In this document: positions 4,945 to 64,000 of the stretch, piece after piece
Layout of the letters: the number at the start of each line of letters is the position of its first letter
Numbering within the stretch: the stretch's first letter is position 1
Assembly: GCA_040218735.1 (NCBI GenBank)
Contig: JAVJQW010000011.1
Location: forward strand, 160,001-224,000
Direction of reading: 5' to 3'
Length of the DNA stretch: 64,000 bases
DNA from: Deltaproteobacteria bacterium
GTDB taxonomy: Bacteria; Myxococcota; Kuafuiibacteriia; Kuafuiibacteriales; Kuafuiibacteriaceae
Position numbers and translations under genes: made by a program
The notes under the pieces: model-generated
The model's database searches: none
What the model was told of the DNA's origin: nothing
Seen by the model: the letters and a program-made list of their open reading frames with translations, nothing else

Positions 4945-4959
4945 AAATCCTCGCTGGAG

Positions 4960-5041
4960 TGCGGCGGGGGAGACTCGAACTCCCATACCTCTCGGCGCCA
5001 CCCCCTCAAGATGGTGTGTCTACCAATTTCACCACCGCCGC
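4960..5041 (-). tRNA. tRNA-Leu(GAG)
   Basis: GCGGCGGTGGTGAAATTGGTAGACAC...CCATC-TTGAGGG-GGTGG, long variable arm, TTCGAGT T-loop; CCA not encoded; secG-tRNA-Leu linkage is common. Confidence 0.95.
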
Positions 5042-31461: not shown

Positions 31462-33837
31462 TTAGGACTTCGCCTTCGCCTCGCGGATCTGCGCCGCGGA
31501 GGCGAGGAGTGTGTCGTACGCGATCGTGTCGCCGCTGGTGTAGCGGCCGAAGCTCAGCACGCCGGTCGGACACATCTGCACGCACGCCGAACAGCGTACA
31601 CACTCGGGGTCCTGCATCGGGAGCCCCTTGTTCGCAAAATTCATGATGTCGATGCCCTGGTGGCATACCGAGGTGCAGACGTTACAAGAGATGCACTTCT
31701 TCTTCTCGGGGAAGATCCGGAACTTCGTGAAGCGCGCGTAGATGTGCATCAGCGCCGCCAGCGGGCACGCGAAGCGGCACCACACCCGTCCGCTGAACCA
31801 GAAGTAGAAACCCACGCCGACGATGCCCGCGAGGAACAGATCCACCACGTGGTAGTAGTTGAGCTGCACGCCCGCGACCGACCACCCGGACAATAGGCCC
31901 TCGTAGAACGTGCGCGCGGACCGCCCGAACGAAGAGTCCGGCATCCACCAGCTGATCGCACGCGCAGCGAACAGAACGAACGCCGCAAACAACACGACCT
32001 GCCCGATCATGTTGAGGCGGTTCCACTTCGGGCCATGCGGCATCTTCGTGCGGTGGCGATCGCCGAGTGTCTCCGCGAGCGCGCCGCAGGAGCAGATCCA
32101 CCCGCAGTACGCGCCCTTCCCCCAGCGCCGGATCATCAGCGGGATGATCACGAACGTCTGCACGCCGCCGATCACCAGCCACCACGTCATCGGCTCCGAC
32201 GTGAAGAAGTTCCAGATGAACAATGGCCACGCGAGCACGAACCCGAACGCTCGCCAGTACTCGCGCCCGTGCGCGGACCACTGCGTCGCCGGGAACAGGT
32301 TGTCGGCGAACGTCTTGCCGAACCCGTCGTCGAACACCCCGTTGTGCCCGAGGTAGGGGAGGAGAATGTACGGCAGCAGGAACAGCGGAACGAGCTGCAT
32401 CGCCATCAGCGTGAGTGTCTGCGTCTTCACATACGGCGTGCGCCGCCGCTTGATGCGGTCGATGCCGAACGCCACCACCGCGACCGAGTACGCAAGCGCG
32501 TAGTAGAAGCCGGGCTCGGTCGAGGTGATCGCAAACGTGCCGAACAACGTCTTGGGGTCCTTCGCCGCCTGGGAGATCGTCGACAAGAAGCCCTTCATCC
32601 CGAACGGGAACCACCCGTGGCTCGTGAAGTAGTCGTGGATGACGCCGCTGCCCGACTTCCAGTTGTAGACGAACACGCAGAACAGCATGAACGCCGCGAA
32701 CGCCGCGATGGACTTCGGCGTCCACTCGCCGCGGATCGGGATCTTGCTGCGGCGGAAGAAGTCGAGCGGCGCCTCGCGGCCGATCATCGCGAACACCACG
32801 TCGTTGGCGATCGTCTGCGCGTTGCCGTCGGCGTCTTGGATGCGCACGTCTTCGTCGCGCACCTCGAGGAGCTTGCTCGCCATCATCAGCTGGATGCCGC
32901 CGCGGTGCGTCCCGCCCGCGAGCCCGGCGCCCATCGCGGAGTTCACACGGTCGGAGACCGGGTTCTCGATGTCGACCTGCGCTTCCGGGTCGCGCCGGAA
33001 CGTCTCGAGTTTTTCGATATTCTCCGGCTTGGGTCTGGAGAACTCAGGTTTTCGATAAGACAGCGTGACGTTCGCGCCGACCATCGCCAACGCGATCGCA
33101 CTCTCCAACGCAGAGTCACCGCCACCCACGATGAGTACGTTCTTGTCCGCGTACTCACGCGGGTCATAGAGCCGGTGATAGACCTTGTCCTTGTCCTGCC
33201 CGGGGACGCCGAGGCGTCGGTAGTTACCACTGCGCCCGATACCGATGATAACCCGCTGCGCGCGCGTGACCTTCGCCTCGCCCTTACCACCGTGCACGAC
33301 CTCGAGCACGTCGCCCTTCTTCTCGACGCGATCGATGTGCGCCGCGACGGGCTCCACGCCCGCCTCCTCCTTCTGCCTCTCGAGCTCCGCGAGGAGGTCC
33401 TCTTTGACGTCCGCCGTGAACTGCAGATCACCCGCCGGCGTCATGTCCGTCGGGTAGGTGAAGATCGGTTTGCCCTTCGGGAAGTTGACGATCGTGTTGA
33501 ACGCCTCCGCGGCCTCGTAGACCACGAAGCTCAACCCCGCCTTCTTCGCCTCGACCGCCGCCGCGATCCCCGACACGCCCGCGCCGACGATCACGAGGTC
33601 CTTCACCCCCTTGCCGCCCTTCCCTTTCGAGAAGCCCGGCTCTTCGAGGATGGCCTGCACGGCGCGCGCGCCGGTGTGCGCGGAGAACTTCAGCAGCGGG
33701 ATGCCGGTGAGATCGCCCACGATGCGCACGCCGGGCACCGCGGTCACGCCGTCCTCGCCGACCTCCGGCATCTTCTCCACGTGCCCCGCCGGCCAGCGGG
33801 TGTGGAGCCAGTGCATGTAACGCGCGAGGGGGTTCAT
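31462..33837 (-). CDS. FAD/NAD(P)-binding oxidoreductase fused to membrane 4Fe-4S (NapH/RdxA-like) domain
   Basis: VGAGVSG, VGGGDSA, several TM helices, CGWICS, CRFACP, CISCNVCTSVC, CVRCSACVQMCP. Confidence 0.88.
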   Translation of the reverse strand: MNPLARYMHWLHTRWPAGHVEKMPEVGEDGVTAVPGVRIVGDLTGIPLLKFSAHTGARAVQAILEEPGFSKGKGGKGVKDLVIVGAGVSGIAAAVEAKKAGLSFVVYEAAEAFNTIVNFPKGKPIFTYPTDMTPAGDLQFTADVKEDLLAELERQKEEAGVEPVAAHIDRVEKKGDVLEVVHGGKGEAKVTRAQRVIIGIGRSGNYRRLGVPGQDKDKVYHRLYDPREYADKNVLIVGGGDSALESAIALAMVGANVTLSYRKPEFSRPKPENIEKLETFRRDPEAQVDIENPVSDRVNSAMGAGLAGGTHRGGIQLMMASKLLEVRDEDVRIQDADGNAQTIANDVVFAMIGREAPLDFFRRSKIPIRGEWTPKSIAAFAAFMLFCVFVYNWKSGSGVIHDYFTSHGWFPFGMKGFLSTISQAAKDPKTLFGTFAITSTEPGFYYALAYSVAVVAFGIDRIKRRRTPYVKTQTLTLMAMQLVPLFLLPYILLPYLGHNGVFDDGFGKTFADNLFPATQWSAHGREYWRAFGFVLAWPLFIWNFFTSEPMTWWLVIGGVQTFVIIPLMIRRWGKGAYCGWICSCGALAETLGDRHRTKMPHGPKWNRLNMIGQVVLFAAFVLFAARAISWWMPDSSFGRSARTFYEGLLSGWSVAGVQLNYYHVVDLFLAGIVGVGFYFWFSGRVWCRFACPLAALMHIYARFTKFRIFPEKKKCISCNVCTSVCHQGIDIMNFANKGLPMQDPECVRCSACVQMCPTGVLSFGRYTSGDTIAYDTLLASAAQIREAKAKS
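31583..31640. repeat. Degenerate direct repeat, copy 2 (inside 4Fe-4S coding region)
   Basis: Matches 30893-30949; encodes FANKGLPMQDPECVRCSA on the minus strand. Confidence 0.9.
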
Positions 33838-61675: not shown

Positions 61676-62383
61676 TCAGCGCGCGGATTCGAGGCGCCAA
61701 TCGACCAGCGCCCACTCGACCCACGCGCACGACCCGACGGCGCTCGTCAGGTGGAAGAGCGCGTGAAGTTGGAGCGCCTGCAGCGGGTGGTCACAGGCGA
61801 GCACGAGGTGCTCCGGTACCCAGAGCACCGCGAAGCCCCCGACGTAGGCGAGCACGGCGACGAAGAACCAGCGGCGTCGATCGCCATCGCCGCGCAGCGA
61901 GAGCGCGCCGGTGCGGGCCACGATGTACGCGACGATCAGCGCGTAGCTCACGATGAAGAACTGGAACCACTCCGCGAACGCGACGTACGCCACCGTGAAC
62001 GCGACGCCGTATCCGGCGAGCGCAGACGCGACGCCGCGACGGACGCTCGAACGACGCGCCGCGAGCGCGTAGACGAACGTGAGGCCGGTGTAGATCATCG
62101 GGAGCTCGTCGGCGGCCTGCGAGACCCTCAGCAGCGTTCCGTGGAACAGCGCGGAACCCAGGCCCACCACGGCCACCGCGAAGGCCGCCGCGGCGAAGCG
62201 CGGCTTTGCCTTCCACGGCAGCCGTCGAGCGCGCAGCAACACCACGACGGCGAGTGCGACGATCGCGAAGCTCGACCACGTGTTCCACCACTCCGCGACG
62301 TAGGTGGAGTACACGTAGTTGGGCTCGCACCAGTCGACGTTGGACGGCGCGCCGAACCCATCCCAGTAACCGCGCTCACCCAT
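61676..62383 (-). CDS. Alkaline ceramidase (CREST superfamily)
   Basis: VDWCEPNY...AEWWNTWS, GSALFH, DELPM, LHALFH; about 7 TM. Confidence 0.85.
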   Translation of the reverse strand: MGERGYWDGFGAPSNVDWCEPNYVYSTYVAEWWNTWSSFAIVALAVVVLLRARRLPWKAKPRFAAAAFAVAVVGLGSALFHGTLLRVSQAADELPMIYTGLTFVYALAARRSSVRRGVASALAGYGVAFTVAYVAFAEWFQFFIVSYALIVAYIVARTGALSLRGDGDRRRWFFVAVLAYVGGFAVLWVPEHLVLACDHPLQALQLHALFHLTSAVGSCAWVEWALVDWRLESAR

Positions 62384-62466
62384 CGCCGGACACTCTTGAC
62401 ATATTCGGGGGACATCTGGCACGCGCGCGCACGCGTCTTACTTACTCAGTTCGACGCACGTAAGTA

Positions 62467-62491
62467 TCGAGAAAAATTGGATTTTTCTCGA
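62467..62491. promoter_or_regulatory. Perfect 11-bp inverted repeat (operator candidate)
   Basis: TCGAGAAAAAT-TGG-ATTTTTCTCGA, 8 bp upstream of the -35 box. Confidence 0.6.
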
Positions 62492-62499
62492 CAACGGGG

Positions 62500-62528
62500 T
62501 TGACGCGACCAGGGCGTATCCGTACGTT
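62500..62528 (+). promoter_or_regulatory. Sigma70-type promoter candidate
   Basis: TTGACG-17 nt-TACGTT; predicted start about 62535 coincides with a perfect 11-bp hairpin (62535-62559). Confidence 0.6.
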
Positions 62529-62595
62529 CGGTCTCGCGACACGGTGAAACCGTGTCGCGCGTCCCCACAACCCTTTTCACCCCGAGAGGAGAGCC

Positions 62596-62721
62596 ATGAG
62601 CCAAGCCAAGTTCATCGTCTGGTCAATGCGCTCCCCTGTGCAGAACGGATTGCACCTCGGGCTGAGCAACGCGGTTGCGTGCCGATACGACGGCACCGCC
62701 GGGACCGACCCCCTGAGCTGA
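62596..62721 (+). CDS. Putative leader peptide (41 aa)
   Basis: RBS GAGAGGAG; MSQAKFIVWSMRSPVQNGLHLGLSNAVACRYDGTAGTDPLS*; terminator 29 nt downstream. Confidence 0.55.
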   Translation: MSQAKFIVWSMRSPVQNGLHLGLSNAVACRYDGTAGTDPLS

Positions 62722-62749
62722 CGGTCTACAACGACGTCGGCGCGCCAGG

Positions 62750-62790
62750 AGGCCGGGTCCCCACTTCGGGTACCCGGCCTTTTTTCGTTT
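62750..62790 (+). terminator. Intrinsic terminator / attenuator
   Basis: AGGCCGGGT...ACCCGGCCT stem followed by TTTTTCGTTT. Confidence 0.8.
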
Positions 62791-62861
62791 CTCCCAAGAC
62801 CCGCGGGTCGCCGACGCTCTCCACGCCCGGCCTCCCGCTTCAACGAAGAAGGAGGTGCGCC

Positions 62862-63098
62862 GTGGCGCACGAGACCGACCGCAACCGCGAACGCCTCGAC
62901 GCCGAATACGAGCGTCTGCGTCGCTACTCCGACTACCGCGAGTTCGTTCGCGGCAAGCGTGACGGACGCCTCGGCTACCCGATCGCGGGGATCTCGGAGA
63001 TCTACATCGAGGGGTACATCCTCGGCCGCATGGTGGCGGAGCGCGCCCGACGCGACACCCCGCGGTTCACGATCAGCCCGGCCCGCCGGATGAGCTGA
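62862..63098 (+). CDS. Small basic protein (78 aa), weakly Rmf-like
   Basis: Strong RBS AAGGAGGT, GTG start; RGKRDGRLG...EGYILGR. Confidence 0.55.
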   Translation: MAHETDRNRERLDAEYERLRRYSDYREFVRGKRDGRLGYPIAGISEIYIEGYILGRMVAERARRDTPRFTISPARRMS

Positions 63099-63111
63099 TC
63101 GAAGAGAAGTC

Positions 63112-63190
63112 GCGGCGCGAAGGACGATGGCACGCAGCGAGTCTTCCCGGACTCCACGCCCGCCGGTGCAACGCCGGCCCTTCGCGCCGC
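63112..63190 (+). ncRNA. Degenerate tRNA-like RNA 1 (CCC in anticodon-like loop)
   Basis: 12-bp closing stem GCGGCGCGAAGG/CCTTCGCGCCGC; arm GAGTC-TTCCCG-GACTC; T-like arm GCCGG-TGCAACG-CCGGC. Confidence 0.55.
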
Positions 63191-63207
63191 TCGAAACAAG
63201 AAGCTCT

Positions 63208-63272
63208 CGAGGTCATGGCCACGCGTGTAGGCGCGTCGTCTTTCTGGGTGCGAAACGCACCCAGAGGCCTCG
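63208..63272 (+). ncRNA. Three-way-junction structured RNA 2 in the HNH leader
   Basis: CGAGGTC/GGCCTCG closing stem; ACGCGT-GTAG-GCGCGT; TCTGGGTGCG-AAA-CGCACCCAGA. Confidence 0.45.
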
Positions 63273-63311
63273 CACCGTACGAAGGAAGACAGATTCAGGG
63301 AGGTGACACCG

Positions 63312-63857
63312 ATGGAGACGCTCGTGCTCTCACACACGTATCAGCCACTGGACCGCATCGGGTGGCAGCGCGCCATCACGCTGTGGGTCCTCGACAAGGT
63401 CGAGATCCTCGAGTCGTACGACGACAAGACGATCCGCTCCGTGTCCATGGCCATCGAGATGCCCGCGGTCGTGCGCTTCGTGCACGCGGTCCGCATCCGC
63501 ATCGGCCACCCGCGCTTCTCCCGCGAGAACGTCTTCGCCCGTGACCACGGGCGCTGCCAGTACTGCGGCAAGAAGCTGACCCGTCAGACCTCGACGTACG
63601 ACCACGTCGTGCCGCGTCGCCTCGGCGGCCTCACGCGGTGGGACAACATCGTCATCGCGTGTCTGACCTGCAACCAGCGTAAGGGTGGTCGCACGCCCTT
63701 GCAGGCCGGAATGAAGCTGCGCTCGCAGCCCGTCCGACCCAAGTCGCTGCCGTCGACGTTGCGCTTCACACTTCCGGCGCCTGACAAGGTTCCGGTCCCG
63801 TGGCGCCAGTACTTCTACGACCTGACGTACTGGCATGGCGCGCTCGACGAGTCGTGA
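63312..63857 (+). CDS. Stand-alone HNH endonuclease (181 aa)
   Basis: RBS GGGAGGT; TLVLSHTYQPL...WQRAI; RENVFARD, CQYCG, DHVVPR, GG..WDN...ACLTCNQRKG. Confidence 0.92.
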   Translation: METLVLSHTYQPLDRIGWQRAITLWVLDKVEILESYDDKTIRSVSMAIEMPAVVRFVHAVRIRIGHPRFSRENVFARDHGRCQYCGKKLTRQTSTYDHVVPRRLGGLTRWDNIVIACLTCNQRKGGRTPLQAGMKLRSQPVRPKSLPSTLRFTLPAPDKVPVPWRQYFYDLTYWHGALDES

Positions 63858-63874
63858 CGTCGTGCGACGAATCT

Positions 63875-63910
63875 GCCGCGGCGCTCCTCGCTCACGGGGG
63901 GCGCCGCGGC
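63875..63910 (+). other. GC-rich hairpin after the HNH stop
   Basis: GCCGCGGCGCTCC...GGGGCGCCGCGGC, no U-tract. Confidence 0.55.
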
Positions 63911-63915
63911 CCTGC

Positions 63916-63992
63916 TACCGCGAGACATCCGGGGATCGGCGCGTTCACTGCCACGTGACCGCGCGAGGCGGGTTCGACTCCCGCCGCGGGGT
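63916..63992 (+). ncRNA. Degenerate tRNA-like RNA 3 (GCC in anticodon-like loop)
   Basis: Canonical T-arm GCGGG-TTCGACT-CCCGC; TCAC-TGCCAC-GTGA arm; imperfect acceptor TACCGCG/CGCGGGG; near window edge. Confidence 0.5.
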
Positions 63993-64000
63993 TCGTGTTC

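Follow-up and report, generated by a model that had tools for sequence, protein, structure and literature searches.

The DNA analyzed here is a 64-kb window (G000:C55:160001-224000; coordinates below are window positions unless another locus is named) from a Myxococcota genome of high GC content, 11.6 Mb in 70 contigs and 96% complete. We refer to the genome under study as G000 and to its sister genome as G001; other G-numbers designate related genomes and L-numbers the loci compared. An initial annotation had listed ten elements at the end of this window, and a direct check of the sequence located all of them in place on the plus strand of 62467-64000. They comprise an AT-rich palindrome, a promoter-like sequence, a 5' hairpin, a short leader open reading frame (ORF), an intrinsic terminator, a small protein gene (orf78), a pair of structured RNAs (RNA1 and RNA2), a gene for an HNH endonuclease, a hairpin behind it and a third structured RNA (RNA3). 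The operator/promoter region, the 5' hairpin, the Shine-Dalgarno sequence (SD) with its ATG, the terminator, orf78, RNA1, RNA2, the HNH gene and RNA3 follow one another in identical order in G001, and this order is partially conserved in four further genera. Hence, the elements cannot be attributed to chance.

The HNH gene (63312..63857, plus strand) encodes 181 amino acids and matches the Pfam families HNH_5 (PF14279; 1.4e-14) and HNH (PF01844; 1.1e-12) above cut-off. Full-length orthologues are present in 16 loci of related genomes, with identities of 44-91%, the highest value being that of G001. The catalytic residues D97, H98, N112 and N121 and the four cysteines C82, C85, C117 and C120 of a Cys4 metal site are invariant in 14 orthologues. 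Among 17 loci (L001-L017), the gene stands directly behind true tRNA genes in nine, and wider flanks revealed 31 tRNAs ahead of it in G010 and 15 around it in G003. A further scan found 5 to 25 tRNAs at 17 of 80 loci, including those of Archangium, Hyalangium, Pyxidicoccus and Myxococcus. In these arrays, the run usually ends with tRNA-Leu, followed by HNH and then tRNA-Ser. Plasmids of Nostoc (11 records), Mycobacterium and Mycolicibacterium also carry homologues, of 35-40% identity; the Mycobacterium plasmid homologue lies inside a 28-tRNA array and the Nostoc plasmid homologue just before a 21-tRNA array. A homologue in Acaryochloris has no tRNA nearby. The association of HNH genes with tRNA arrays is described for mycobacteria and Anabaena in passages of two reports (PMC5966550, PMC8421152). 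Judged by sequence and by the company that its relatives keep, the HNH protein of the window is of the tRNA-array-associated kind, and the link between such genes and arrays drawn by the initial annotation is borne out both by the orthologues behind true tRNAs and by the plasmid homologues.

The neighbors of the HNH gene are syntenic in G001, G004, G006, G007, G011 and G015. At the syntenic site, tRNA genes number five in G007, two in G006 and one in G015, and none is present in G000, G001, G004 or G011. In G007, the promoter region is followed by the leader ORF, tRNA-Lys, tRNA-Asp, orf78, tRNA-Trp, RNA1, tRNA-Glu, tRNA-Leu and HNH. This arrangement shows an intermediate state of tRNA loss. 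According to one definition, given in PMC4758250, a long tRNA array holds at least 20 tRNA genes at a density of two or more per kb. The window locus falls outside this definition, with no tRNA detected in 62467-64000 by ARAGORN or by Rfam at E values up to 10. Its descent from an array is indicated by orthology, by synteny with G006, G007 and G015, by a leader like that of G007 and by an HNH gene of the array type. Altogether, the region is very probably a chromosomal, vertically inherited remnant of a long tRNA array cassette of Myxococcota. The ancestral cassette would have been laid out as an operator and promoter, a 5' hairpin, a leader ORF with its terminator, a run of tRNAs, HNH, and tRNA-Ser genes; in the genus of G000, all canonical cassette tRNAs would have been lost, and the control region, orf78, HNH and the three structured RNAs kept. 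Gene order and RNA elements are retained around the HNH homologues, and the lack of conservation that the initial annotation had named as refuting its proposal was not found. On the other hand, the suggestion that the region opens a larger system, with a further run of tRNA-like units downstream, had to be abandoned: an Hsp70-like gene and an oxidoreductase gene lie beyond 64000, and no such units were seen there.

RNA1 (63112..63190, plus strand) is predicted to consist of a 12-bp closing stem, a hairpin with a CU-rich loop and a T-arm-like hairpin (minimum free energy, MFE, -45.1; z = -3.6). RNA2 (63208..63272, plus strand) is a three-helix structure with a 7-bp closing stem and two hairpins (MFE -39.9; z = -5.9). 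For each of them, 0 of 200 shuffled sequences folded as well. RNA3 (63911..63990, plus strand) folds into a cloverleaf-like structure with a canonical T arm. None of the three is called a tRNA by ARAGORN or by Rfam (RF00005, E up to 10), and the single ARAGORN call in the whole window lies at 4959-5041. RNA3 is called at a lax threshold only, with a 4-nt anticodon, and the same is true in G001; at this threshold, ARAGORN calls are mostly noise on both strands. We have rejected, on the strength of both programs, the idea that RNA1-3 are functional decoding tRNAs. Over the entire region, Rfam returned only sub-threshold matches at chance level (Rothia-sucC, Pxr, Xoo2, Guanidine-III, sucA and SorX).

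Homologues of RNA1 are present in G001, G006 and G007, and among them the T-arm-like stem stays paired despite double changes. RNA1 aligns with the array tRNA-Gly(UCC) genes of G003, G008 and G010 and, like them, is placed after tRNA-Trp. Compared with a tRNA, the D arm is gone, the anticodon-like loop has 6 nt and the T loop is altered. These alignments make it likely that RNA1 derives from tRNA-Gly(UCC). In the same way, RNA3 is likely a relic of tRNA-Ser, judging from its tRNA-Ser-like T arm and from its position, which is where tRNA-Ser genes follow HNH in relatives; its T stem has undergone a compensatory change with respect to G001. The initial annotation viewed all these RNAs as diverged tRNAs. 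They do occupy the positions of true tRNAs in orthologous loci, and RNA1 and RNA3 look tRNA-derived. Since sequence searches (nhmmer and blastn) for the RNAs and the leader found matches in G001 only, and for RNA2 also in G006, distant RNA copies were sought by structure-aware inspection. RNA2 is 78% identical to the G006 copy. Across five sequences from four genera, pairing holds in 88.6% of cells versus 35-48% with slid partners, and eight pairs change on both sides. A search with its covariance model (R1) detected RNA2 in 5 of 20 family genomes, in each as a single copy immediately ahead of HNH; about 880 kb of HNH loci yielded no other match. RNA2 is a candidate for a new RNA family, matching no Rfam family. 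In the window, the RNA2 model also gave a weak match on the minus strand at 33210-33280 (22.8 bits, E 0.028), which is probably due to chance.

Comparison with G001 reveals where the region is constrained. Identity between the two genomes is 96% in the 5' hairpin, 84% in the terminator and 82% in both RNA1 and RNA2, whereas the spacers and the leader-ORF body are only 38-40% identical. Because of this difference, RNA1 and RNA2 are conserved elements rather than neutral debris, and both are under purifying selection. In a 99%-identical strain recovered from a public DNA run, six positions differ and one base is deleted, the changes falling at 62491, 62578-62583, 63253 and 63740. The deleted base lies in a loop of RNA2, and the stems of RNA1, RNA2, the 5' hairpin and the terminator are all unchanged.

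The leader ORF (62596..62721, plus strand) has 41 codons and is preceded by a purine-rich SD at 62584-62593. In G001, the ORF codes for 38 amino acids and shares the same SD and ATG and the same stop position, and a 9-nt indel keeps the frame across the diverged body. SD-led leader ORFs of 45, about 71 and 25 amino acids are found in G004, G007 and G011, respectively, and equivalent ORFs exist in G006 and ahead of Myxococcaceae arrays. The leader peptides of Myxococcaceae can be aligned; the five HNH-linked leaders of the family are barely alignable with one another. A small hairpin, H1 (62717..62741, plus strand), is predicted to overlap the leader stop codon, and most of the folded leaders have a hairpin separating their stop from the terminator. 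The intrinsic terminator (62746..62790, plus strand; core 62751-62779 followed by six T) lies 29 nt after the leader stop; it was missed by a consensus scan because its stem has an internal mismatch. A near-identical terminator hairpin closes the leader in 15 further loci, and an SD-led ORF with such a hairpin stands ahead of ten Myxococcaceae arrays, in G006, in G027 and ahead of a second array of G003. The distance from the end of the ORF to the terminator hairpin is 26-42 nt in 16 of 16 compiled leaders. T-run terminators are also found in G001 and G011, and in L052, reading by eye showed an ORF together with a terminator that differs in sequence.

The tight pattern of this terminator hairpin occurs at just two sites in the 11.6 Mb of G000, one in the window and one on C64, and both lie behind leader ORFs. 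The second leader (G000:C64:29950-31300; L125 2950-4300) has a near-identical terminator hairpin and heads an array of eight tRNAs (Tyr, His, Phe, Arg, three Leu and Ser), which is the sole array-like cluster among the 79 tRNAs of G000. No HNH gene is present in the 137-nt gap between its last tRNA-Leu and the tRNA-Ser, the usual site of HNH.

Folding of the leader points to a second use for the end of the ORF. When the 3' arm of the terminator is left out of the MFE fold, the 5' arm is predicted to pair with the last four to seven leader codons, enclosing a small hairpin, which in the window is H1. The candidate antiterminator strand thus lies within the last leader codons (62701..62715, plus strand). 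The same topology was obtained in 6 of 6 single folds, including that of the window, and in 3 of 3 consensus folds of Myxococcaceae subgroups. Furthermore, 14 of 16 leaders form at least 7 bp between the terminator arm and their last ten codons, as compared with means of 3-5.5 after shuffling. The leader ORF and terminator, for which the initial annotation had proposed attenuation, make up a conserved module with an antiterminator that is plausible in the predicted folds. Modeled in this way, the evidence tips slightly in favor of a ribosome-mediated attenuator at the leader.

Family leader peptides contain 16-20 amino-acid types in 25-45 residues: 19 types in the 41 residues of the window leader (nucleotide-shuffle P = 0.0086), 20 in 38 in G001, 20 in 45 in G004, 20 in 41 in G006 and 16 in 25 in G011. 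This diversity is significant in all five HNH-linked family leaders (nucleotide-shuffle P = 0.0012 to 0.0086), and three related leaders of the Hyalangium type also hold all 20 types. As a genome-wide background, 20 of 5486 ATG-initiated ORFs of 36-46 amino acids reach 19 types. No run of one regulatory codon exists in the 41-aa leader, and most rare amino acids appear in it once. We hypothesize that the leader peptide could serve as a sensor of general translation capacity.

The mechanism that we propose would operate as follows. Transcription would start near 62535. A ribosome translating the 41-codon leader up to its stop would cover 62701-62715, the terminator at 62746-62790 would form and transcription would end there. 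If the ribosome were absent or stalled early, 62701-62715 would instead pair with the 5' arm of the terminator, and transcription would read through into orf78, RNA1, RNA2 and HNH. Since the leader samples 19 of the 20 amino-acid types, a shortage of nearly any charged tRNA or a general inhibition of ribosomes would be expected to induce the operon. The tRNA-derived RNAs might then act as punctuation for the processing or stability of the orf78 and HNH messages, a role that the true tRNAs would have in intact arrays; this part of the scheme is doubtful, and we offer it tentatively. As a whole, the combination of an array remnant, an attenuator and punctuating RNAs is likely to be the best explanation of the locus.

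Several observations weigh against this explanation or parts of it. No tRNA is present within 4 kb at 59 of the 80 HNH loci scanned, and only one or two at 4 of the 80. Because members of the HNH family so often stand without tRNAs, the array ancestry of the window locus is deduced from its near relatives. The case for homology of RNA1 and RNA3 to tRNAs is made from short alignments and from position. Measured against the consensus, the promoter is weak, with three of six matches in its second hexamer. G004 and G007 have a leader ORF with no recognizable T-run terminator. No leader was recognized upstream of six other arrays (L030, L043, L048, L053, L079 and L112), nor upstream of the Mycobacterium and Nostoc arrays. 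Automated detection of leaders in front of other arrays was itself unreliable; it confirmed L130 only, and L028, L032 and L065 were left out for having too little upstream sequence. A loose version of the terminator pattern matched 151 of 401 genomes of the phylum and was rejected as a marker, being an unspecific and common type of terminator; only 4 of 30 inspected loci with this pattern were of the leader type, and several were ordinary terminators beside tRNA-Val/tRNA-Asp pairs. The antiterminator pairing of the window, taken alone, is equaled by 13.5% of shuffles, and the positional tests are weak for single leaders, with 2% to 100% of shuffles equally good. Antiterminator duplex energies were no better than those of shuffles. 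For 9 of 17 leaders, including that of C64 in G000, the diversity of amino acids fails to reach significance. Among public sequencing runs, 20 of 23 listed rows contain part of the stretch, of which two are labeled as RNA, at 5% of words. Contigs of these two metatranscriptome-labeled runs cover 63302-63671 and 63348-63586, both parts of HNH, and reveal neither expression nor transcript ends; they diverge by 3-7%, come from relatives and may be DNA.

Another account of the region, along the lines of the initial annotation, is that the tRNAs have given way to a new system of RNA and nuclease. The tRNA-derived RNAs, no longer decoding, would work in trans, as decoys for toxins or enzymes that target tRNAs or as partners or guides of HNH. 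The orf78 product could target ribosomes, and translation stress would turn on the whole operon. Purifying selection on RNA1 and RNA2 would fit such a system, as would the single copy of RNA2 abutting HNH in all five genomes that have it, and the HNH catalytic residues, which are intact though the tRNAs are gone. In addition, PMC8421152 states in a passage that ribosome inhibitors induce the array of Anabaena together with its HNH gene. In NCBIfam, the HNH domain best matches the HNH portions of the Cas9d and IscB models, but these matches extend over only about 60 residues of the generic HNH fold and are far below the family cut-offs. Similarly, the weak leads to RMF for orf78 are unsupported by sequence, and neither rtcB nor Ro60 is linked to the locus. 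Moreover, the only link between RNA and protein computed here is adjacency, most HNH loci are without RNA2, and processing punctuation is a simpler account of the same conservation. We therefore regard this account as unlikely. A bolder reading joins this account to the attenuator: Myxococcota would switch on reserve tRNA arrays through a leader holding nearly every amino acid once, which would act by transcription attenuation as a general sensor of ribosome speed and of the supply of charged tRNAs, and the sensor would have been kept here to drive a new stress module of tRNA-derived RNAs, an RMF-like protein and HNH, for instance with decoys for tRNA-cleaving toxins, ribosome silencing and nucleic-acid cleavage. 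This combination is similarly unlikely.

At the opposite extreme, RNA1-3 could be vanishing tRNA pseudogenes and HNH a selfish homing endonuclease, with nothing in the region serving the host. The variation from zero to five tRNAs at the syntenic locus among genera would be expected in this case, and the RNAs do fail tRNA models. An extra T-arm relic, kept between RNA1 and RNA2 in G001, is absent from G000. A homing role has indeed been proposed for array HNH genes in a passage of PMC8421152. However, neutral decay is very unlikely in view of the 82% identity of RNA1 and RNA2 to G001 against 38-40% in neutral spacers, the RNA2 helices kept through double changes across four genera, a near-identical strain in which RNA2 differs by a 1-nt loop deletion only, and an HNH gene that is 91% identical in G001 and syntenic across genera. 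Finally, the leader might be a separate gene for a small RNA (sRNA) of about 250 nt that begins with the 5' hairpin and ends with the terminator. Its ORF would then be incidental or code for a small protein, and orf78 and HNH would have promoters of their own. The two ends of this segment are its best conserved parts (96% and 84% identity to G001, against about 40% in the body), which is typical where transcript ends matter, and the terminator region weakly resembles sRNAs such as Pxr (a sub-threshold Rfam match of 21.9 bits, the gathering score being 80). Nevertheless, SD and ATG, frame and stop are kept in G001 across the diverged body with its 9-nt indel, an ORF is present in every compiled leader, the Myxococcaceae leader peptides are alignable and the end of the ORF is predicted to pair with the terminator arm. 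The module also lies always directly ahead of tRNAs or of orf78/HNH, in the same orientation. An independent sRNA gene is thus quite unlikely, and since attenuator RNAs may be sRNAs too, the two readings are not exclusive.

The G000 locus has its closest known counterparts in the trn operon of PCC 7120, with all8564, and in the arrays of Mycobacterium. The HNH proteins are of the same family, with 35-40% identity to those of the Nostoc and Mycobacterium plasmid arrays, and the orthologous loci in relatives of G000 are true arrays. In contrast, the G000 locus has no canonical tRNA, is chromosomal and is syntenic across genera. For the Anabaena array, passages of PMC8421152 document induction by translational stress and attribute control to 9-nt direct repeats at the promoter and an unknown repressor. 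Unlike that array, G000 has a leader ORF and a terminator; the words "leader" and "terminator" are absent from the main text of PMC8421152. The survey PMC4758250 makes no mention of Myxococcota arrays in its main text, and a literature search, which did not cover subscription journals, turned up no description of such arrays, nor of tRNA arrays preceded by a leader-peptide attenuator. The cassette type, a long tRNA array with HNH, is already known, and the candidate novelties are the array attenuator and RNA2.

As in the trp, his and pheL attenuators and in the upstream ORF of E. coli topAI-yjhQ, a short SD-led ORF precedes a terminator, the end of the ORF is predicted to pair with the 5' arm of the terminator, and the expected logic is that a stalled ribosome leads to read-through. 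The G000 leader differs from them in having no run of a single codon and in containing nearly every amino acid about once. Furthermore, no region 1 sequestering the antiterminator, as in classical attenuators, is evident in the window; because of this, read-through would be the default of an untranslated leader. A further difference lies in the genes controlled, tRNAs and an HNH nuclease rather than a biosynthetic operon.

Elements resembling tRNAs are known to punctuate transcripts, as in mitochondrial tRNA punctuation and in mascRNA. By analogy, acceptor-like closing stems and T-arm-like hairpins flank the protein-coding segments of the window locus, and the minihelix of G004 described below is of this sort. 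RNA2, however, has no T loop, and the likeness is one of analogy and not of membership. The comparison made by the initial annotation with RtcB/Ro60 RNA-repair loci finds no support: the RtcB genes of G000 are on C70 and C66, not on C55, TROVE/Ro60 was not found in this 96% complete genome and Rfam gave no match to the Y-RNA-like family YrlA in the region.

Regulation of long tRNA arrays is described for one cyanobacterium only, in passages of PMC8421152. If our explanation is correct, a leader-ORF attenuator would be a second and mechanistically transparent control route, used by Myxococcota arrays, and the sampling of all amino acids by one leader would represent a design principle different from that of attenuators responding to a single amino acid. 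The remnant would also reveal what selection keeps when an array decays, namely the switch, HNH and a few tRNA-derived structures. Because HNH and the RNAs have been kept after the loss of the tRNAs, it can be argued that they serve the cell beyond the spread of the array. Likewise, RNA2 would be a conserved structured RNA outside the families of Rfam.

The 5' edge of the module is marked by a GC-rich conserved motif (62418..62437, plus strand) that recurs in G001, G004, G007 and G011, about 30 nt upstream of an AT-rich repeat and despite a differing upstream gene. With up to two mismatches, this motif has seven sites in G000, the sole exact one being that of the module. The AT-rich perfect palindrome (62467..62491, plus strand; 11-bp arms and a 3-nt spacer) is a candidate operator abutting the -35 hexamer, and AT-rich repeats occupy its position in the same four genomes. 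We discarded the palindrome as the operator of a regulon, the other site in G000 being a single chance match with five mismatches inside a coding region. The promoter-like sequence (62500..62528, plus strand), identified by sequence match, reads TTGACG-17 nt-TACGTT; its -35 hexamer is conserved in G001, G004, G007 and G011, and the poor fit of the second hexamer explains why the consensus scan did not call it. An 11-bp 5' hairpin follows (62535..62559, plus strand; z = -3.7), and hairpins at this position also exist in G001 and G004. Ahead of the Myxococcaceae array leaders (L055-L063), some 60-100 nt before their start codons, lie short A-rich direct or inverted repeats. These upstream regions also contain a GGAA-type motif spaced from a CGTC motif, a combination reminiscent of an alternative-sigma promoter.

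On the minus strand, divergent from the module, lies a gene of the ceramidase family (61676-62422; PF05875, 2.1e-39). In G004, G006 and G007, the syntenic upstream gene and the module have neither this gene nor its neighbors as far back as about 59700 between them.

The orf78 gene (62862..63098, plus strand) has a GTG start that agrees with its homologues and codes for a small, basic, lineage-specific protein of 78 amino acids. Homologues lie upstream of HNH in G001, G004, G007 and G011, in G007 between tRNA-Asp and tRNA-Trp. The family is tiny, with five matches in a collection of 5.8 billion proteins plus the homologues in G004, G007 and G011, and no sequence match was obtained in Pfam, NCBIfam, PHROG or PDB. 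The initial annotation had called this ORF Rmf-like. RMF (PF04957) is likewise small and basic, and its Atlas clusters appear as weak leads (feature 0.82, structure TM 0.58 to 0.73, below the bar of the tool). However, eight members of the orf78 family gave no Pfam match at E up to 10, no PDB sequence was matched at E up to 10, and the likeness is a weak lead, not a finding.

The 16-bp GC hairpin after the HNH stop (63875..63910, plus strand) qualifies the earlier view that no terminator follows this gene. A strong hairpin after the stop was predicted in 9 of 9 readable oriented loci, with unrelated sequences, and that of G006 has a T run. The absence of a terminator is thus debatable. Elsewhere in G000, an HNH-domain paralogue (G000:C52:200951-201388) shares 42% identity over residues 34-180 and lies within an open frame of 672 amino acids; long HNH forms similar to this frame exist in G001 and G002.

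Some further observations concern the tRNAs and tRNA-like units of related arrays. In G004 (L007 1382-1412), an 11-bp stem with a canonical T loop, forming an acceptor/T-arm minihelix, lies between orf78 and RNA2, the place of RNA1 in G000. In G008 (L006 780-1290), several array units have a G replacing the second T of the T loop, and the loop of RNA1 is altered alike; one of these units (L006 1124-1195) scores 46 bits as a tRNA in Rfam and looks like tRNA-Gly(UCC). A sub-threshold YrlA match (43.2 bits against a gathering score of 69) was found in G029 (L012 2216-2287), just after the tRNA-Ser genes downstream of HNH. The array tRNA-Leu genes of L004, L005, L009, L011, L012 and L013 measure 74-79 nt by ARAGORN, as compared with 83 nt for the housekeeping tRNA-Leu at 4959-5041 of the window, and therefore seem to be without the long variable arm. 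In L009 (111-242, 245-373 and 1173-1305) and L013 (2786-2915), full-model Rfam tRNA matches of about 130 nt and 42-44 bits inside the arrays are possibly tRNA genes with an insertion or an intron.

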